From Candidatus Iainarchaeum sp. (GTDB lineage Archaea > Micrarchaeota > Micrarchaeia > Anstonellales > Bilamarchaeaceae), in NCBI GenBank assembly GCA_028711485.1, contig JAQTSF010000001.1, positions 1 through 50,950 on the forward strand: a stretch of 50,950 nt of DNA. The letters run 5' to 3'. The notes below the pieces were generated by a model, which saw only the letters and a program-made list of their open reading frames with translations, searched no databases and was not told where the DNA came from. The position numbers and the translations under genes were made by a program. Positions 3,173-48,633 of this stretch are shown here, in pieces (within the stretch, counting starts at the first letter, position 1; every line of letters starts with the position of its first letter).

Positions 3173-3194
3173 AATTACTATTAAAATAGTAATT
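3173..3194. promoter_or_regulatory. Perfect palindrome AATTACTATT-aa-AATAGTAATT upstream of the ribB-ribCH-ribA operon; candidate operator
   Basis: 10-bp arms, read directly, 16-37 nt upstream of the ribB ATG (3157, minus strand) and overlapping the expected TATA region. The 9-mer ATTACTATT recurs at 20947-20955 upstream of ribK. Confidence 0.4.
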
Positions 3195-3210
3195 ACTTAA
3201 AAATTGGTAA

Positions 3211-4677
3211 TTATTTAAAGGTGGAAAGTTTGGTCTGCCCGAGAGGCTTCTTTTCCCCTACTATAATATACCCATCTTTCTTAAAAGAAATGTTCGAGAG
3301 AATGCTTTTCATTTTTTTCTCCCGGTTGATAGATGCCCAGTAAAAATATTCATCCCTACTTTTCCGTGTAATTAAAATATATACTTCACCTTGAGAGAAA
3401 CGCCCGGTTCTCCCTCTTCTTTGAATTGAACGAATTTCACTAGGAATGGGTTCATAAAAAATTACTACATCTACTGCAGGTATATCTAAACCTTCTTCGC
3501 CTACGGAAGAAGAACATAATATGTTAAATTTTCCTTCTCTGAAATCAGATAGAGTTTCTTCTTGAAGTTTTTTTGTGAAATTATCCTTTTTTCCCATAAA
3601 AACCCGGGAATTAAAATTGTTTTTATTTAGGTGTTTAGATATTAGAGTTATTTGATCACGATATTGTGCAAAAACAATAATTTTCTTATTTTTAAGAGTA
3701 GAAAGAATGGTTGTTAATAGTTCTAATTTTGGATGGGATTGAGAGGGTAGTAGTAAAATTCTTTTTATTAGGGGATTGTTTAGAAGAATTTTAGAAGATT
3801 TTGTGGTTTTTTCACTTAACCGATTGATATATTGTTGAAGAACTTGTAGTGATTGAGTTTCTAGAAGTTCAACCATATGTAATAGATTTAGTAAAAGTGC
3901 GTAGTTCAAAAGAGCAATAAATTTGGTTTTTTTAGAGGATTTTAGTATTCTAACCCTTAAATGCATAAATTGGGTTTTGGATTTGAGAGGTGGAGGAAAA
4001 CCGAAAGCTGCCAGAACTTTTGCGTATTTTGAGATAAGAGACTCCAAATCTCGTTTTATTAACATGTACGTTGGTGGAAGATCTACAAACTGCCAAAAGA
4101 TATTTGTTTGATGTGTATAGGGTTTTACATCAATATCTGTGGTGGTACGAAGTTCTACGTTTTTGATATACAGATTAGAAAGAACCTCTTCTATTCTTTC
4201 TTTTCTTCCGCCGGGAGAAGCAGTTAATGAAACTATTAATGCATTATCTTTTACTTTTTCAGCTATTTTTACATAGGCATAATCCCCAACAGCTCTATGA
4301 CCCTCATCAAATATAATTAAGGAAAATTGAGGGGAAAGTAATTTGTTTTTTAAATCATTGTTAATTGTTTGGGGTGTGGCGACGATAATTTTCTTATTAT
4401 ATTCCTCTTTTCGTTTTTTTGGTGGAAGATCTCCTGTAACTATAGTTACATTAGTTTTTTCACTATCTAAAATTGAGGTAATAGAGTTAAAATGTTGAAG
4501 AACTAGTGGTTTTGTAGGCGCCAAAAATAAGCATCTCCCAGAGGAAATTTTATCCTTGATTAACATAAGTGCAATTAGTGTTTTACCTAGTCCCGTCGGA
4601 AGAACAACTAAAGTATTACCTTTACGTAGAATAGAATCAAAAATATTTTTCTGATATTCACGAGGGGTTAGATTCAT
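3211..4677 (-). CDS. Hef/FANCM-like SF2 helicase (helicase part only, no ERCC4 nuclease domain)
   Basis: ORF track 3211..4746 starts at GTG; ATG at 4677 gives MNLTPREYQ. Motifs LPTGLGKT (Walker A), FDEGH (DExH), SSSVGEEGLDIP, QRRGRTGR. Confidence 0.75.
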   Translation of the reverse strand: MNLTPREYQKNIFDSILRKGNTLVVLPTGLGKTLIALMLIKDKISSGRCLFLAPTKPLVLQHFNSITSILDSEKTNVTIVTGDLPPKKRKEEYNKKIIVATPQTINNDLKNKLLSPQFSLIIFDEGHRAVGDYAYVKIAEKVKDNALIVSLTASPGGRKERIEEVLSNLYIKNVELRTTTDIDVKPYTHQTNIFWQFVDLPPTYMLIKRDLESLISKYAKVLAAFGFPPPLKSKTQFMHLRVRILKSSKKTKFIALLNYALLLNLLHMVELLETQSLQVLQQYINRLSEKTTKSSKILLNNPLIKRILLLPSQSHPKLELLTTILSTLKNKKIIVFAQYRDQITLISKHLNKNNFNSRVFMGKKDNFTKKLQEETLSDFREGKFNILCSSSVGEEGLDIPAVDVVIFYEPIPSEIRSIQRRGRTGRFSQGEVYILITRKSRDEYFYWASINREKKMKSILSNISFKKDGYIIVGEKKPLGQTKLSTFK

Positions 4678-9073: not shown

Positions 9074-9238
9074 GATTTATGAGGTTTTCACATGCGTGAT
9101 CCGTTTTAAACGTTGGTACGTTTAAAATATCCCGCATTAAGGTATTAAAGAGGTTTTCACATGCGTGATAATTCGAACTGACAATACAAGTTCAAATATC
9201 CCGCATTAAAGTATTTATGAGGTGTTCACATGCGTGAT
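9074..9238 (+). repeat. Triplicated SD + ATG-CGT-GAT module (43-nt block, period 69 nt) with two divergent 26-nt hairpin-forming inserts and two mini-ORFs
   Basis: Blocks at 9127-9169 and 9196-9238 differ at 4 positions; a partial copy is at 9074-9100. Mini-ORFs are MRDPF* (9092-9109) and MRDNSN* (9161-9181). Hairpin 9104-9127 has a 10-bp perfect stem. Confidence 0.8.
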
Positions 9239-10393
9239 GTAGCTATTATTGGAGTAGGAATGACCTCCTTTGGAGAACATTGGAGTAAAGGATTCAGGGA
9301 ACTTGTAGTGGAAGCAGGAACAAATGCATTAAAAGATGCTGGAATTTCAGGAGAAAAAGTAGATGCTGGTTTTGTAGGAACAATGGCTTCAGGTAAATTA
9401 ATTGGACAAGAACACATTGGTGCTCTAATTGCTGATTTTATGGGTCTTAACCCCATTCCAATTACGAGAGTGGAAGGAGCATGTGCATCAGGCTCTCTTG
9501 CATTAAGACAAGGAATTATGGCAGTAAGTTCAGGGATGCACGATACTGTAGTTGTTGGTGGAGTAGAAAAAATGACGGATTTAGGTACTACTGGAGTCAC
9601 CACCGCATTGGGTGGAGCTGGAGATCAAGAATGGGAGCTTTTTTTTGGTGCAACTTTTCCCGCATTATACGCCCTTATGGCAAGAAGACATATGATTGAT
9701 TTTGGAACAACTGAAGAAATGCTTGCTTCTGTTTCAGTTAAAAATCACAAACACGGTTCAATGAATCCCAATGCTCAATTCCAAAACCAAATAACCCTCC
9801 AAGATGTTTTAAATTCCAAAATGGTTGCAAATCCATTAAAAATTCTCGACTGTTCACCTATCTCTGACGGAGCTGCAGCATTAGTTTTAGTTCCTTTAGA
9901 AAAAGCACATAGTTATACAAAAAAACCAGTAAGAATTTTAGCATCTGCACAAGCAAGTGATACTATCTCTTTACATTCCAGAGAGAGTCTTACTGGAGTA
10001 AAATCAGCTCAAATAGCTTCTCAGAATGCTTATAAATATGCTAAACTTTCACCAAAAAATATTGACGTTGCAGAGGTTCATGATTGCTTCTCAATAGCAG
10101 AAATAATGGCAATAGAAGACTTAGGATTTTTTAAGAAAGGAGAAGGCGGCATTGCTTCATTAGAAGGGAGAACTTCTCTTGGAGGAGAAATTCCAATTAA
10201 TACCTCTGGTGGATTAAAAGCATGCGGTCACCCTGTGGGTGCAACAGGGGTAAAACAATTAGTGGAATTATATTGGCAGCTTAAAGGTGATGCAGGAAAC
10301 AGACAGGTAAAAGATGCAAACATTGGACTTTCCCATAATGTTGGGGGGAGTGGAGCAACAACAGTTGTTCATATTGTAAAAGGTGAGTGGTAA
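9230..10393 (+). CDS. Archaeal thiolase (acetyl-CoA C-acetyltransferase family)
   Basis: MRDVAIIGVGMTSFG, EGACASGSLA (catalytic Cys), VHDCFS, GGLKACGHPVGATG. Confidence 0.85.
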   Translation: MRDVAIIGVGMTSFGEHWSKGFRELVVEAGTNALKDAGISGEKVDAGFVGTMASGKLIGQEHIGALIADFMGLNPIPITRVEGACASGSLALRQGIMAVSSGMHDTVVVGGVEKMTDLGTTGVTTALGGAGDQEWELFFGATFPALYALMARRHMIDFGTTEEMLASVSVKNHKHGSMNPNAQFQNQITLQDVLNSKMVANPLKILDCSPISDGAAALVLVPLEKAHSYTKKPVRILASAQASDTISLHSRESLTGVKSAQIASQNAYKYAKLSPKNIDVAEVHDCFSIAEIMAIEDLGFFKKGEGGIASLEGRTSLGGEIPINTSGGLKACGHPVGATGVKQLVELYWQLKGDAGNRQVKDANIGLSHNVGGSGATTVVHIVKGEW

Positions 10394-11617: not shown

Positions 11618-11707
11618 TTTTAACTTATCAAAAATAGACAACACAGACAAACAACGAAATCTATTTAAATGATTGTCTTAATAGTATTTTAGTCAATTGG
11701 TGCACAT

Positions 11708-11779
11708 ATGAATAAGATAAAATTGGAAATCAGTGTGAACTGTTGTTCACAACTCTCTAACTTTAAGGTGAGATCATGA
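11708..11779 (+). promoter_or_regulatory. 23-codon upstream ORF (MNKIKLEISVNCCSQLSNFKVRS) with an internal palindrome; its stop overlaps the main start (ATGA)
   Basis: GGTG lies 5 nt upstream of ATG 11708. The first 8 codons encode the same peptide as the downstream gene using 5 synonymous third-position changes. TGTGAAC-tgtt-GTTCACA is at 11734-11751, and TGA 11777-11779 overlaps ATG 11776-11778. Confidence 0.5.
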
Positions 11780-12459
11780 ATAAAATTAAGTTAGAGATCG
11801 CTGGAGAAATTTCACTTTCAACTGACCCCGGATCTACAATGAGAAAATGGAGAGAAATATTTGGTATAAGTCAGGTTGAACTTGCCAATTACTTAAATAT
11901 AACTGTTTCAACTATAAGTGATTATGAAGGTAATAGGAGAAAATCTCCTGGTTCGGCAATAATAAGAAGATTTGTGAATTCATTATTTGATATTGATCTA
12001 AAGAAAGGCGGTTTGATTTCAAGAAAATTAACTGAGAATGAGAAAACCACAAACGATTTTTTTGAGGTCCACGAATTTGCCAGAAGTATTAAATTATCTG
12101 ATTTTATTTCTCTAATAGATGGTAAAATCCATACAAATAAAGAATTAATAGATTCCAAAAAAATCTATGGTTATACTCTTATAGATAGTATAAAAACTAT
12201 TTTAGAAATGCCTTTTTCCTATTTTACTTCTCTTTATGGAAATATAAGTGAAAGGGTATTCCTATTCACAGGAGTTTCAACAGGTAGAAGTCCTTTAGTT
12301 GTAGTTAGGGTAAGTCCAAACAAACCTTCAGCGGTAGTTCTTCATGGAGTTGAAAAAATAGATAAACTTGCGCTTAAAATTTCAGAAAGAGAACAGATTC
12401 CGATAATTTCAACAAAAATGTCTATAAATGAAATAAAAGAAAAATTAAATAGTATATAG
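11776..12459 (+). CDS. XRE-family HTH transcriptional regulator with uncharacterised C-terminal domain
   Basis: MRKWREIFGISQVELANYLNITVSTISDYEGNRR is a Cro/C1-type HTH. The C-terminal 150 aa are unassigned. Confidence 0.65.
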   Translation: MNKIKLEIAGEISLSTDPGSTMRKWREIFGISQVELANYLNITVSTISDYEGNRRKSPGSAIIRRFVNSLFDIDLKKGGLISRKLTENEKTTNDFFEVHEFARSIKLSDFISLIDGKIHTNKELIDSKKIYGYTLIDSIKTILEMPFSYFTSLYGNISERVFLFTGVSTGRSPLVVVRVSPNKPSAVVLHGVEKIDKLALKISEREQIPIISTKMSINEIKEKLNSI

Positions 12460-17401: not shown

Positions 17402-17448
17402 AAATACACATATATATTTATATATAAACTTTATAAAAACCTATCTTT

Positions 17449-17602
17449 CATAGCCTTTTAGTTTCTAAGTATAAACTAGTTTGAAAAGGCTATGTCCGAC
17501 AGAACGTCGCAACGTTCTGTGGACCATTGAAACTTGGCGAAGCAAGTTTCAATATTTGACGGGTAACGTCCCGTCAAACCATAGAACGACACGTCGTTCT
17601 AT
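17449..17602. other. Back-to-back array of five different perfect hairpins (candidate structured RNA or DNA cruciform cluster)
   Basis: A 17449-17494 (11 bp). B 17495-17523 (12 bp plus one bulge). C 17526-17553 (11 bp). D 17555-17578 (9 bp). E 17581-17602 (9 bp). Linkers are 0-2 nt and all stem pairs are Watson-Crick. Confidence 0.85.
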
Positions 17603-17659
17603 TGGTAACCCAAAACCAGCTTCTCTTCTAACTAATAAATAATAGATCAAAAAGATGGA

Positions 17660-17760
17660 TGGACTCGCCCAGATTTGAACTGGGGACCTTCACCATGTCA
17701 AGGTGACGTCATACCGTTATCCGCTTTGAAATTAATTTCAAAGCTCTAGACCACGAGTCC
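17660..17760 (-). tRNA. tRNA-Val (anticodon GAC) with a ~28-nt non-canonical intron in the D-loop
   Basis: Folded by hand. Acceptor GGACTCG/CGAGTCC, anticodon arm TCACC-TTGACAT-GGTGA, T arm CCCAG-TTCAAAT-CTGGG. Removing 17716-17743 gives a 73-nt tRNA with D-loop AGAGGGTA. Confidence 0.8.
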
Positions 17761-17844
17761 TAAAACAAGATAACTCTTAATTATTCTCCAATTTCTTTTT
17801 AATTCTTATCCCTTAATATAATTCTCAAACTTTTTGGTGATAAA

Positions 17845-22813: not shown

Positions 22814-22977
22814 TTTCTTCTTCTTTCAGATTTATTTTTTTATACCTTTTAATTTATTTTATATCAGACGCTGTTGACCTCATCACCAACCTTTTGACTC
22901 ATTACATACACACGGCAAAACGTTGACGAAAAACCATGCGATATATCTTTGTCAGGTTATCAGAGGTTGTTCATGTC

Positions 22978-23160
22978 ATCACAATGAGCGACCCAAGAGG
23001 AACAATCAACAACTTAAGCCTTTACTCGTTAGTGAATTGTGATTTTTGAACGTTAGTTCAAAAGTATCACAATGAGCGACCAAGGATTGACAAGCATTCC
23101 AGAGTCTTTACTCATAAGCGAATTGTGAACTGTAAGAATCAGTTCACCTAATCACAAGAT
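22978..23160 (+). repeat. Two ~88-nt units (box1 - variable 24-26 nt - box2 - variable hairpin) plus a degenerate third box1
   Basis: Box1 ATCACAATGAGCGACC is at 22978-22993 and 23066-23081. Box2 CTTTACTCNTNAGNGAATTGTGA is at 23020-23042 and 23106-23128. Hairpins are at 23044-23063 (8 bp) and 23125-23147 (8 bp). ATCACAAgat occurs at 23151. Confidence 0.8.
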
Positions 23161-23257
23161 TAATATATTTCATACTTATTAAAAACCAAACGTTATTGCA
23201 CGAATAAACAACCGAGCCCTTTAATTCTTTTTGCATCTTATCTATCTGGGATATCCT

Positions 23258-24400
23258 ATGTCTAACAGAGACCTTCAAAAACTTATTTCCATGACTTTTG
23301 ACGAAGACCCGGAGGTAAGAAAAAGAACAGCAAAGAAACTCTCAATTCTAGATGACCCTGGTGCCTTATTTGCATTAATAGAACTTTCTTATGATAAGGA
23401 TGATTCAGTAAGAGATACAGTAAAAAGAATCTTAGAAAAAAAACAATCTCAAAAAACCGAGGACATACTATCCTTTTCAGAACTTTTTTCATATAAAGAA
23501 GATGTTCAAAGTCCTGTGTCTGAAGAAGAACAAAGTGATAAGAAGAAAAGACTTCTTCATCCAATCGAATTGATATTCGAAAGAAGGTTGGGAAGCAAAT
23601 CTGAAATAGTTAAGAAAAAGATGATGCCTAGTTTGGAAAAAGTATACTTAAAGGCAGTTTCAAAAAATGGGCCAGCTTCGGAAACAGAAAGAAAATCTGC
23701 AGTTCAGGAATTTCTTACAACTTATTTGGACGCAATTTCAGACATAAATTCTTCATCAGAGACTTCTTTTATCAAAGAAACAATAAAAGAAAAGATAGAA
23801 TGCCGCGATACAATTGATTCTTTGGAAGCTCTGGAACATGTTTCTTCTAAGAGTTCATTGGATGAAGAACATATAAATTCCATATTAAAAGAAGCAGATG
23901 AACTCCTACCTAATTCTGAAGAAGAGCAAGAAACATTTCTTAAGGATGCTCCGGACAGCATTTTCAAAAAAGCATACGAACTTATGATGTATTCTGGAGG
24001 AGACATAAAATTAATGAAAAAAGAAATGAAAAGAATGATGAGGAATGCAGAAAGAGATATAAAATTAGCATTCAGATTAGCAAGCCAGAAATTTAGAGAA
24101 CACAAATTAACAAAAATAACCGAAATAAGAGAAAAAATGAGAAATATTTATACTGATGATTTGTTAATTATTTCAAAAGAACCCATTGAATTCAAGAAAC
24201 CAAGGTCCTCTACCAATGCACTAAGGATTTTAGTGGAAGATCCCCAAGGAAATGAAGGAGTAATTTACTTGTTTGACGGACGTGGGGAAACACTTTCAAA
24301 AGGAATGAAAATAAAGATCGAAAAAGGATATGCAAAAGTAATAAATGATGAAACTGCATTGACTATAGGATCTTCAGGAAGAGTATATATTGTAGTCTAA
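23258..24400 (+). CDS. HEAT-repeat protein with acidic linker and OB-fold-like C-terminus
   Basis: ORF track 23231 starts at TTG; ATG at 23258. DEDPEVRKRTAKKL..DDPGALFALIELSYDKDDSVRDTV is PBS-lyase HEAT-like. The C-terminal LRILVEDPQGNEGVIYLFDGRGETLSKGMKIKIEKGYAKV looks OB-like. Confidence 0.55.
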   Translation: MSNRDLQKLISMTFDEDPEVRKRTAKKLSILDDPGALFALIELSYDKDDSVRDTVKRILEKKQSQKTEDILSFSELFSYKEDVQSPVSEEEQSDKKKRLLHPIELIFERRLGSKSEIVKKKMMPSLEKVYLKAVSKNGPASETERKSAVQEFLTTYLDAISDINSSSETSFIKETIKEKIECRDTIDSLEALEHVSSKSSLDEEHINSILKEADELLPNSEEEQETFLKDAPDSIFKKAYELMMYSGGDIKLMKKEMKRMMRNAERDIKLAFRLASQKFREHKLTKITEIREKMRNIYTDDLLIISKEPIEFKKPRSSTNALRILVEDPQGNEGVIYLFDGRGETLSKGMKIKIEKGYAKVINDETALTIGSSGRVYIVV

Positions 24401-24463: not shown

Positions 24464-24631
24464 ATGAAAACTCTTTCAAAATATGAATTCGCACGATTGA
24501 TCGGTGCAAGAGCATTACAGCTTTCTTTAGGTGCTCCTCCAACAATAAAAATTCAAGATAGTACTATAGATCCATTGAATATTGCAAGAAAAGAATTCGA
24601 AGAAAAAACCATACCTTTATCTGTAATCTAA
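24464..24631 (+). CDS. rpoK: DNA-directed RNA polymerase subunit K (Rpo6)
   Basis: 55-aa ORF below the ORF-track cutoff, translated by hand: MKTLSKYEFARLIGARALQLSLGAPPTIKIQDSTIDPLNIARKEFEEKTIPLSVI (classic RpoK/omega core). Confidence 0.8.
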   Translation: MKTLSKYEFARLIGARALQLSLGAPPTIKIQDSTIDPLNIARKEFEEKTIPLSVI

Positions 24632-35601: not shown

Positions 35602-35604
35602 GAG

Positions 35605-35781
35605 TCAACCCCACGTTACTCTTTTTCTATCAAAATTTTTAGCCAGGTCAGCAGCGTTTTTCATTGCTAACACACTTACAACAATACCTGGAATAATCTG
35701 AATTGCTTGAGGAATAGGAACCCCTCCTAACTTACCTTTTAGAATATGTTTTTCTAATTCAAGATATGCTCTTCCGACCAT
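35605..35781 (-). CDS. Hypothetical small protein (58 aa from ATG; 61 from TTG at 35790)
   Basis: ORF track 35605..35790. No recognisable motif. Confidence 0.35.
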   Translation of the reverse strand: MVGRAYLELEKHILKGKLGGVPIPQAIQIIPGIVVSVLAMKNAADLAKNFDRKRVTWG

Positions 35782-35820
35782 TTGAATCAAATATATTACT
35801 CATAACATCTTTATATACTT

Positions 35821-35880
35821 TTCTCACCCTAGGCAAGGGAAGGACCCCTCGCCTAATGGCTCACCCACTCCCCCCAAGTC
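35821..35880 (-). ncRNA. GC-rich island, candidate structured RNA or leader (unclassified)
   Basis: Sharp GC rise in an AT-rich spacer. The minus-strand hairpin GGCGAGGGG-ucc u-UCCCUUGCC (35832-35853) has 9 pairs including two G-U, which would be A-C mismatches on the plus strand. It is flanked by direct GGGUGAG repeats (35823-35829 and 35860-35866). Confidence 0.3.
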
Positions 35881-35970
35881 GATATATTAAAGGATTTTAT
35901 TATTCATAATATTCTATTACAAATCCCTACCATAGACACAATATCTAGAGAACTAACAAACAATTCTTTT

Positions 35971-47298: not shown

Positions 47299-48633
47299 TT
47301 ATAATCTATCATCTTTCTCAAATCCATAGAGTGATTTTTGAACGTTTTCAAAATAATCAATAAAATCATTATCCGATTTTGAAATAATTTTCTCTCTAGT
47401 TTTTATCTCCTCAAACATTTCTTTTTTTGAAAAACCTAATTTATCTGCAATTTCTAAGACAGTATCTGATGATTTGATTTCGTTTTCATTTGCCTTAAAA
47501 TATTCCGCATATCTCGGACTTCCGATTTCAACAATCTCCCGTATTTCTCTATTTTTTCTTTTTTTCCTGTCATAAACCAGTCTTCTTTTTTGAACTAAAA
47601 TCAAATCTACAGATTTTGTTTCTGATTCAGAACAACCAAGAGATTTTAATCTCTGAACAGTTTCATCAAAACTTCTTCCATGCATAGTACAATAACTTCC
47701 GCGAGCTTGTCCTGAGAGCATTATATCCACCATTGCTTCAATTTCATCAGGTTTTCTTACTTCTCCTATTACTGTTCTATCTGGTCTCATTCTAAGGCTG
47801 TCATGCACTAAATCACTCAGTGAAATTTTCATATTTTCGTTTGTAACAAGTCTTATCTGATGTTCATGAAGTATGTTTATTTCCGGAGTTTCTTCTATTA
47901 GCAATACCCTCTCATTTTTAGGAATAAATGTAAAAAGGGAATTCATTGTAGTTGTTTTTCCACTTGCAGTATTCCCAGAAATTATCACATTACTATCAGA
48001 TTGCATTATCAATGAAAGAAAGGCCATTCCATATAAGCTAATTGCTGATTTGGAAACTAGTTCTTTAGGTGTGTATGGGTTCATTCTAAATTTTCTAATT
48101 GTTAATTCACATTGCGATATTGGTGGTGCAGTTGCATGCACTCTTGAACCATTAGGCATTACTCCATTTACTCGAGGTTTTTTCAAAGTTATTGTTCTCC
48201 CTATTTTTTTAATTATCTTGTTCACAAATTCCTTAAAAAATTCTTCATCATTAAATGCAACATTTGTTCTCATCCAACCTCTGTTTCTCTCAAAAATATA
48301 AATAGGTTTTCCTATACCAATTATGCTAATTTCCTCTATTTCATCATTGTCCATAAGCTCTTCCAGAGGTCCGAATCCGAATATATGTTTTACTGCATTC
48401 TCTAACATATATCTCTCTTGATCATAATCCAGAGTCAATCCTTCTTTTTCGCATTCAGCAGACATTATTTGTTTTATACTTTCTTCAGCTTCCTCATTAT
48501 TCATTATACTTTTTATCTTTGTCTTTTCGCCATAAACAGATTCAATTTTTTTTATAAGTTCTTCTTCCTCACTGCTCATCCTCTTTATTTTTAATTTTCT
48601 TTCACCTATTTTAAGAATCTCCCATCCGAGCAT
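47299..48633 (-). CDS. Type II/IV secretion-family ATPase (FlaI/PilB/VirB11-like)
   Basis: SGNTASGKTT (Walker A), VLLIEETPE (Walker B), IGEVR, TMHG. Confidence 0.85.
   Translation of the reverse strand: MLGWEILKIGERKLKIKRMSSEEEELIKKIESVYGEKTKIKSIMNNEEAEESIKQIMSAECEKEGLTLDYDQERYMLENAVKHIFGFGPLEELMDNDEIEEISIIGIGKPIYIFERNRGWMRTNVAFNDEEFFKEFVNKIIKKIGRTITLKKPRVNGVMPNGSRVHATAPPISQCELTIRKFRMNPYTPKELVSKSAISLYGMAFLSLIMQSDSNVIISGNTASGKTTTMNSLFTFIPKNERVLLIEETPEINILHEHQIRLVTNENMKISLSDLVHDSLRMRPDRTVIGEVRKPDEIEAMVDIMLSGQARGSYCTMHGRSFDETVQRLKSLGCSESETKSVDLILVQKRRLVYDRKKRKNREIREIVEIGSPRYAEYFKANENEIKSSDTVLEIADKLGFSKKEMFEEIKTREKIISKSDNDFIDYFENVQKSLYGFEKDDRL

Follow-up and report, generated by a model that had tools for sequence, protein, structure and literature searches.

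A spacer repeat in a Micrarchaeota contig as the probable remains of an expanded box C/D sRNA gene

In the 50,950-nt stretch of contig JAQTSF010000001.1 from Candidatus Iainarchaeum sp. that we analysed (hereafter the window), a 444-nt spacer (22814–23257) separates the stop codon of a 169-amino-acid (aa) open reading frame (ORF) from the ATG of a HEAT-repeat gene at 23258, and it carries two repeat units in which conserved boxes (box1 and box2) flank variable segments. We found that this spacer is very probably the transcription unit of a box C/D small RNA (sRNA) encoded on the minus strand, with the repeat units representing duplication debris or a 5' leader that is trimmed off. An earlier note, made from the sequence without database searches, had likened the repeat to guide-RNA logic. 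That idea holds in so far as a guide RNA is encoded here, while the strand is minus and the guides are 12 nt long rather than being the 24–26-nt variable segments.

Read on the minus strand from 22982 to 22864, the spacer contains GUGAUGA-CAUGAACAACCU-CUGA and, further downstream, GUGAUGA-GGUCAACAGCGU-CUGA, that is, box C, a 12-nt guide, box D', box C', a 12-nt guide and box D, in the order that is canonical for a box C/D sRNA (Table 1). A third repeat family, TATCAGAnGnTGTTnAnnTCATCAC, which the earlier note did not contain and which a repeat finder located at 22862, 22958 and 23131, turned out to be the key to explaining the spacer. The same RNA occurs in 20 other Micrarchaeota loci, mostly as a compact gene of 50–60 nt. 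In a repeat screen of related loci, the string CGCATGGTTTTTCGTAAACGTTTTGCC, which matches positions 22944–22918 of the window's minus strand, was present in two of them (L006 and L007), and in both the whole stretch from 22982 to 22864 is conserved, with a 5' part of GUGAUGA-CAUGAACAACCU-CUGA-UAACCUGACAA followed further on by a CGCAUGG element, and a 3' part ending in GUCAAAAGGUU-(G/U)UGAUGA-GGYYWACAGCGU-CUGA. Scanning metagenomes with a 22-mer pattern across the C box, guide 1 and the D' box yielded 17 more loci, in which the identity of guide 1 is partly by construction, as the retrieval pattern contained it. The sRNA is also carried by L001, found by blastn, where guide 1 is UAUGAACAACCU and differs by one base, and by L010, a compact example that reads AUGAUGA CAUGAACAACCU CUGA acc GUGAUGA GGUCAACAGCGU CUGA.

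Exactly 12 nt separate C from D' and C' from D in the window copy, as they do in 17 of its 20 relatives; the remaining three (L013, L017 and L024) have 14 nt instead of 12 in the second half. Our homologue table comprises 21 members, and 16 compact ones form alignment A4, in which the 3' part of guide 2 (ACAGCG) is invariant and its 5' part variable. A sequence model (R1) constructed from the 16 compact members, with the window excluded, matched the minus strand of the window at 22959–22982 (model positions 5–28, E = 1.5e-7) and at 22862–22889 (model positions 28–55, E = 5e-7); the two half-matches lie in model order, and the next best match in the window has E = 4. Gene order is consistent with this homology. 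The order in L010 is a homologue of the DUF7121-like 169-aa protein (62% identity), an opposite-strand sRNA in a spacer of ~180 nt, and the HEAT gene; L001 keeps the pairing of the DUF7121-like gene (72% aa identity) with an opposite-strand sRNA. This synteny implies that the spacer ancestrally held a 50-nt box C/D sRNA gene and divergent promoters. The genes around it are archaeal housekeeping genes, and G+C is ~31%. The HEAT protein is 100% identical to one from an NCBI metagenome-assembled genome labelled Candidatus Iainarchaeum sp.; its relatives are from Micrarchaeota, and the nearest homologue is 67% identical. In L001–L003, HEAT and Rpb6/RpoK are separated by a bPH_2 (PF03703) gene, which is lacking in the window, where HEAT ends at 24400 and rpoK comes directly next at 24464–24631.

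Table 1. Features of the spacer and the basis on which each was assigned.
Feature	Position	Strand	Remarks
Box C/D sRNA (probable), C box to D box	22864–22982	-	119 nt; functional core of the spacer on this interpretation; canonical boxes, homologues, model R1
C box GUGAUGA	22976–22982	-	Read from the sequence; UGAUGA invariant in alignment A4
Guide 1 (D' guide) CAUGAACAACCU	22964–22975	-	Same in 19 of 20 relatives
D' box CUGA	22960–22963	-	Sequence, homologue table, alignment A4
D'–C' linker, 73 nt	22887–22959	-	Common to L006 and L007
C' box GUGAUGA	22880–22886	-	Sequence, homologue table, model R1
Guide 2 (D guide) GGUCAACAGCGU	22868–22879	-	Same in L010 and L026
D box CUGA	22864–22867	-	Invariant in alignment A4
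Body B (unit 1: box1, variable segment, box2)	22983–23043	-	Rod-like hairpin directly upstream of the C box
Pseudo-module C, GUGAUAC-UUUUGAACUAAC-GUUC	23044–23070	-	Decayed C box, guide and D' box; four-module alignment
Body C (unit 2)	23071–23130	-	Second rod-like hairpin, paralogous to body B
Pseudo-module D, GUGAUUA-GGUGAACUGAUU-CUUA	23133–23155	-	Decayed module; contains the decayed third box1
Probable TATA element of the sRNA unit, GGTTTTTAATAAG	23175–23187	-	Aligned to the L006 and L007 promoters; inferred
Probable HEAT-gene promoter, CCCTTTAATTCTTTTTGCATC	23217–23237	+	Divergent from the sRNA promoter; position matches L002 and L003; inferred

The D'–C' linker is the part of the core in which the window copy departs most from its compact relatives, with 73 nt in the window, roughly 130 nt in L006 and 175 nt in L007, against 3–24 nt in compact members. 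The linker ends, with AACCUGAC and GUCA-AAA-GGUU, are invariant in these three long copies, and an inner element, CGCAUGGUUUUUCGUCAACGUUUUGCC, is invariant or nearly so in the same three. A helix between the linker ends appears in both the minimum free energy and the centroid fold of the window RNA and in the fold of the L007 RNA; in the L006 RNA fold, a local hairpin competes with it. Since the linker ends are invariant and predicted to pair, the two halves likely still belong to one RNA. According to these folds, a helix between the linker ends would give the C'/D' motif a closing stem, as a stem-closed kink-turn (K-turn), in place of a kink-loop (K-loop).

Upstream of this core, the two repeat units are where the earlier note had placed them, with a period of 88 nt. 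Box1, ATCACAATGAGCGACC, occurs at 22978 and 23066 and at no other site of the window (0.11 matches expected with <=3 mismatches), and box2 occurs only at 23020 and 23106 (0 expected). The perfect hairpins at 23044–23063 and 23125–23147, the 8-bp complementarity between the box1 end and the box2 end (ATCACAAT/ATTGTGAT) and the decayed third box1 at 23151 are also present. The variable segments, described before as unrelated, are not wholly so, with 61 of 91 aligned columns identical between the unit containing body B and that containing body C. Box1 is identical at 16/16 positions and box2 at 20/23, compared with a whole-unit average of 67%, and a run of 16 consecutive identical columns between the two units has a shuffle p of 0.024, so that the boxes stand out from the variable parts with only modest significance. 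Copies of the box1-to-box2 arrangement elsewhere, which the note had suggested looking for, numbered 0 in scans of the genome, metagenome and viral collections, which leaves the boxes unique to this contig; a blastn-short search with the spacer across the remainder of the window, aimed at targets of the variable segments, returned chance matches only. Neither did relatives offer a repeat for covariation analysis, as no orthologous copy was found and the closest HEAT homologue is only 67% identical.

Two observations concern the units in their own right. An exact 16-nt copy of GTGATTTTTGAACGTT (23039–23054) lies at 47331–47346 within overlapping minus-strand ORFs and with no boxes around it, which is probably chance. 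A Logan assembly of run SRR22315508 has a contig break inside unit 2 (23105–23132; L004/L005) with a 28-nt overlap and is otherwise identical to the window; the break could reflect a graph branch or strain heterogeneity, and no variant sequence was recovered from it. The spacer had also been taken as by far the longest in the window, which is wrong, as the spacer at 17402–17844 measures 443 nt, although an unannotated tRNA gene is hidden there. This tRNA gene (17660–17765, minus strand, anticodon GAC, Val) has a non-canonical intron with a perfect hairpin, GCTTTGAAAT/ATTTCAAAGC, at 17723–17744; it was missed by ARAGORN and reached E = 0.018 with the Rfam tRNA model, below the gathering score.

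The units become intelligible when they are divided differently, into rod-like bodies and short modules that each correspond to a C box, a guide and a D' box. Four modules align with GTGAT and GAAC invariant. Two of them (A and B) are the working C'/D and C/D' halves of the sRNA, and the other two (C and D) have decayed. Box1 spans the 3' end of a body and the five bases that open the following C box or pseudo-C box, and the inner part of box2, GAGUAAAG(G/A)C, resembles GAGUCAAAAGG, the sequence just ahead of the C' box in L006, L007 and the window. The differing hairpins of the two units are decayed guide modules paired with neighbouring sequence, that of pseudo-module C being UUUUGAAC/GUUCAAAA, and the module D copy is 72% identical to the reference copy of the third repeat family. 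The aligned counterparts of the element GGTTTTTAATAAG are CTTTTTAATATG (L006) and CTTTATAATATG (L007), 20–21 nt upstream of the C box of their locus. Module D starts 19 nt downstream of GGTTTTTAATAAG, at the position where L006 and L007 have their C box; module C follows 85 nt beyond module D, and the working modules B and A come next. On the opposite strand, the probable HEAT-gene promoter has its counterpart in TTTAAAAT elements of L002 and L003, ~35 nt upstream of the HEAT ATG.

Tandem duplication of this kind is not confined to the window. L028 contains a perfect 68-nt repeat with three copies of the module end (11659–11820), L029 two module copies with a period of 67 (405–505), and L015 two copies with a period of 115 (3183–3319); in all three the duplicated part is the C'-guide 2-D module with its trailer. 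These independent duplications show a tendency of the family towards tandem copying of its modules. For the sRNAs of Pyrobaculum, duplications of modules and remnants of pseudogenes have been described (PMC6009581). We regard the units as most likely duplication debris or a trimmed 5' leader, not as guides, and the repeat is best seen as the visible scar of an sRNA gene expansion. A decaying duplication had been among the options named before, and a tandem duplication that is partly decayed is indeed present; the copied part, though, is the sRNA leader with its C-guide-D' module and not that of the HEAT gene. When bodies B and C were compared with the D'–C' linker as their possible source, just ~15 nt were clearly similar (ACUAAYGAGUMAAAGG).

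For the mechanism, we envisage a mature minus-strand RNA bounded by the C box (22982) and the D box (22864), possibly circular, that would, by homology, assemble with L7Ae, Nop5 and fibrillarin. In box C/D ribonucleoproteins (RNPs), the methylated nucleotide is the one paired to the fifth guide position upstream of the D' or D box. Applied here, this rule would direct 2'-O-methylation to the predicted targets AGGU[U]GUUCAUG and ACGC[U]GUUGACC. The compact 50–60-nt ancestor would have been enlarged in two ways, namely by a structured 73-nt insert in the D'–C' loop, closed by a helix and shared with two relatives, and by tandem duplication of the leader plus C box-guide-D' segment on the 5' side. 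Four modules ~88–96 nt apart would have resulted, of which the promoter-proximal D and C lost their boxes and became perfect hairpins, leaving B and A as the working C/D' and C'/D halves. The units would be transcribed as a ~170-nt 5' leader of a rarer precursor predicted to start near 23150–23158, and trimmed once the RNP protects the sRNA core. Archaeal box C/D sRNAs mature from longer precursors, with flanks irrelevant for maturation (PMC7994747), and trimming of such a leader is consistent with this flank-independent maturation.

The targets are possibly at the 5' end of 16S rRNA, within the first 45 nt, as judged from guide complementarity. With E. coli rRNA as a proxy for that of the organism itself, guide 1 matched best at 16S positions 10–21 (10/12) and guide 2 matched positions 33–44 (9/12), the latter among several sites. 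The predicted target strings are AGGUUGUUCAUG and ACGCUGUUGACC, with the co-varying versions ACGCUGUUGGCC, UUAGCC and UAAGCC, and they presumably resemble mixtures of the bacterial and archaeal consensus of the 16S 5' end. The 16S 5' end near helix 3 is a predicted hotspot of archaeal methylation (PMC7994747). Searching viral contigs for the predicted 16S 5' end (GGTTGTTCATG...ACGCTGT) gave 15 matches, all chance-like and none rRNA-like, and the window itself contained no guide targets. The 23S A-loop was tried as a target and nothing was found.

Several observations weigh against this interpretation of the spacer. At gathering score, Rfam gave no relevant match in the window, where the earlier note had proposed such a check, or in 27 loci, and the minus strand showed just weak matches to sR30, sR9, sR3 and sR5 (E 0.7–4.8). 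Because the C/D families of Rfam are species-specific, this miss counts only weakly against membership, and by its boxes and spacing we consider the core an archaeal box C/D sRNA of known kind whose own family is missing from Rfam. The 73-nt D'–C' spacer is far from the 3–9 nt usual for archaeal K-loops, and the linker has a conserved UUUUU that could act as an archaeal terminator and part the two halves. The 40 nt upstream of the working C box contain no TATA element, which would make expression dependent on the proposed promoter farther upstream. Body A shares only ~15 nt of clear similarity with bodies B and C. Lastly, the box conservation and the fold of body B could indicate that the units have a function, as considered below. 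Among other classes of RNA, ARAGORN found no tRNA in the window, and neither a plus-strand K-turn nor a tRNA-like fold fits the folds of the units. An H/ACA sRNA was rejected as well, as the internal loop of the units is one-sided (8 nt on the 5' side, 0 nt on the 3' side), the tips are without GA motifs, and an ACA follows unit B and none follows unit C.

The most serious alternative, which we nevertheless consider unlikely, is that the units are functional RNA elements of the minus strand, such as leader hairpins controlling maturation, stable structured sRNAs or guide decoys. The higher identity of box1 and box2 relative to the whole units would fit this explanation, although the conservation contrast reaches only p ~0.02. 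The rod-like fold is kept in both units, with differing tips and with G.U pairs on the minus strand only; the helix GGCUUAAG/CUUGGGUC of body B has three of these pairs, each of which turns into a C.A mismatch when the plus strand is read. The entire 291-nt precursor folds on the minus strand at -80.8 kcal/mol (z = -3.7), compared with -68.2 kcal/mol (z = -2.4) on the plus strand. In one variant, the C box could be sequestered in a AUCACAAU/AUUGUGAU stem, since the 3' arm of the basal stem of body B (AUUGUGAU) overlaps it. A duplex of 10 pairs between guide 2 and the tip of body B is also possible (-12.2 kcal/mol, equalled in 13 of 500 shuffles), and it fails correction for six tests. Against functional units, moreover, bodies B and C have no homologue in 28 related loci or in three collection scans. 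Two copies in a single genome leave no room for covariation, and the flanks of archaeal C/D sRNAs are dispensable for maturation (PMC7994747).

A plus-strand origin of the pattern appears very improbable. It would make the spacer a long 5' leader of the HEAT gene with chained mini-ORFs (MSSQ*, a 21-aa and an 18-aa ORF), or a source of small RNAs with TATA boxes and an oligo-T terminator. The mini-ORFs are there as strings, GAGGT lies 5 nt 5' of the ATG and the ORFs overlap at ATGA; in addition, unit 1 ends with AUUGUGAUUUUU, which looks like an archaeal terminator, a tandem G.A motif may lie beside a plus-strand stem, and start-codon boxes form an array of similar appearance ahead of the thiolase gene (9081–9238). 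However, GAGGT, the MSSQ* ATG and the beginning of box1 all come from the string TCAGAGGTTGTTCATGTCATCA, which is UGAUGA-guide 1-CUGA in reverse complement; the reverse complement of guide 1, AGGTTGTTCATG, is the source of both the apparent Shine-Dalgarno sequence and the MSSQ* ATG, and the beginnings of the MSD ORFs have the same origin in guide 1 and the D' box. TCAGAGGTTGTTCATGTCATCA is identical in 19 of 20 related loci (L001 is one base off) with unrelated flanks and no such ORFs after it, and box2 falls in different reading frames in the two units, as had been noted before. The mini-ORFs are thus by-products of the sRNA; there is no conserved frame, and guide 1 and D', in reverse complement, account for the one site that resembles a Shine-Dalgarno sequence, with none in unit 2. 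The HEAT genes of relatives have upstream spacers of 70–180 nt without such leaders, those of L001–L003 being short and unrelated to the spacer of the window, and the C.A mismatches and poorer folding on the plus strand point the same way.

Least likely of all is a DNA element (a CRISPR-like mini-array, transcription factor operators or a replication origin, with 62-nt palindromic repeats bracketing 24–26-nt spacers), for which the box-variable-box layout and the 38-nt near-palindrome at the box2-hairpin-box1 junction might speak, but there are only 2.5 'repeats' with differing central hairpins, no Cas- or Orc1-type domain among the neighbouring proteins checked, no turning point of GC skew and no matches of the spacers in the window beyond chance, and homology to C/D modules explains the sequence fully.

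In comparison with known systems, the box C/D sRNA proposed here shares with the archaeal sR families of Pyrococcus, Sulfolobus, Pyrobaculum and Nanoarchaeum equitans the order C (RUGAUGA), D' (CUGA), C' (UGAUGA) and D (CUGA) and the 12-nt spacings, and most members of its family are likewise compact 50–60-nt genes with their own TATA element and with guides conserved across genomes. It differs from them in the D'–C' spacer of the window, L006 and L007, which is ~70–180 nt long and closed by a helix rather than a K-loop, and, in the window copy, in ~170 nt of decayed duplicated modules and hairpins between promoter and C box. In Pyrobaculum, whole sRNAs or C-guide-D modules are duplicated, boxes decay or guides are replaced, and remnants adjoin working genes (Lui et al. 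2018, PMC6009581), which is the closest likeness for the duplications; here, by contrast, the copies stand in tandem inside one transcription unit with a period of ~88 nt, the decayed guides are perfect hairpins, and the phenomenon recurs in the family. Eukaryotic box C/D small nucleolar RNAs (snoRNAs) also have long structured D'–C' segments in which an internal stem closes the C'/D' motif, and the polycistronic snoRNA clusters of plants and yeast are tandem copies processed from one precursor. The window copy differs from these in its archaeal genome and archaeal-type promoter and in that its upstream copies have no intact boxes and could not be protected as separate snoRNPs. U3 snoRNA is a long box C/D RNA that pairs with the 5' region of 18S rRNA, corresponding to the first 45 nt of 16S rRNA in which both guides have their best E. 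coli proxy sites; the family has none of the A, A' and B boxes of U3 and its compact ancestors are ordinary double guides, so this is resemblance only and not membership. What is new here is the long, stem-closed D'–C' insert together with an in-gene tandem array of working and decayed modules.

Other elements in the window and in related loci were recorded alongside the sRNA. Upstream of the thiolase gene (ATG 9230), a tandem array (9075–9240) contains GAGGT(T/G)TTCACATGCGTGAT at 9081, 9150 and 9219 with a period of 69; the third copy provides the gene's actual ribosome-binding site and start codon, and the first two are each followed by a different ~24-nt perfect hairpin and a box ATCCCGCATTAA that can pair with ATGCGTGAT, with no Rfam match. 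A multi-hairpin element organised as helix, UCCGA, variable perfect hairpin, GGACC, further hairpins and UGGU(C/A)A occurs at 17445–17625 of the window, L019 1–132 (minus strand), L020 1870–2004 (minus strand) and L008 6489–6600. In the window it has four consecutive perfect hairpins beside the tRNA-Val gene, in L008 four hairpins directly after a tRNA gene, and the versions of L019 and L020 are shorter and immediately follow the box C/D sRNA; the element has no Rfam match and could be a terminator cluster or an undescribed RNA. At 35602–35970, 369 nt are without a gene in a crude ORF call and have no Rfam match. Within them, a G+C-rich segment at 35825–35880, just downstream of a TATA-like TTTAATATATC on the minus strand, may be a non-coding RNA, and GGTCAGCAGCGT at 35646–35657 (plus strand) is one base off guide 2, with no C/D boxes around it.

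It is doubtful, in our estimation, that the enlargement of the sRNA is itself functional, which would make the transcript a long multi-domain box C/D RNA of ~120–230 nt when mature, with a precursor of ~300 nt. If so, the linker element and leader rods would add contacts to the 16S 5' domain or gate RNP assembly by masking the C box, and the RNA would be an archaeal counterpart of U3-like chaperone snoRNAs and would bridge, as a living intermediate, the compact sRNAs of archaea and the long snoRNAs of eukaryotes, with the recurrent tandem arrays of L028, L029 and L015 representing a general route to new guides.

Taking the spacer as a minus-strand box C/D sRNA gene turns an unexplained repeat into an annotated gene and adds a box C/D sRNA family that is widespread in Micrarchaeota, with both guides unusually well conserved. 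The sequence model and the exact guides allow methylation sites to be predicted from a Micrarchaeota rRNA. Long internal inserts are usually deemed eukaryotic, and the window copy bears on how far archaeal C/D RNPs tolerate them. Together, the window and its relatives show stages of in-gene duplication, with working modules, decayed hairpin modules and a lengthened D'–C' loop, and these stages bear on how guide RNAs gain and lose guides.

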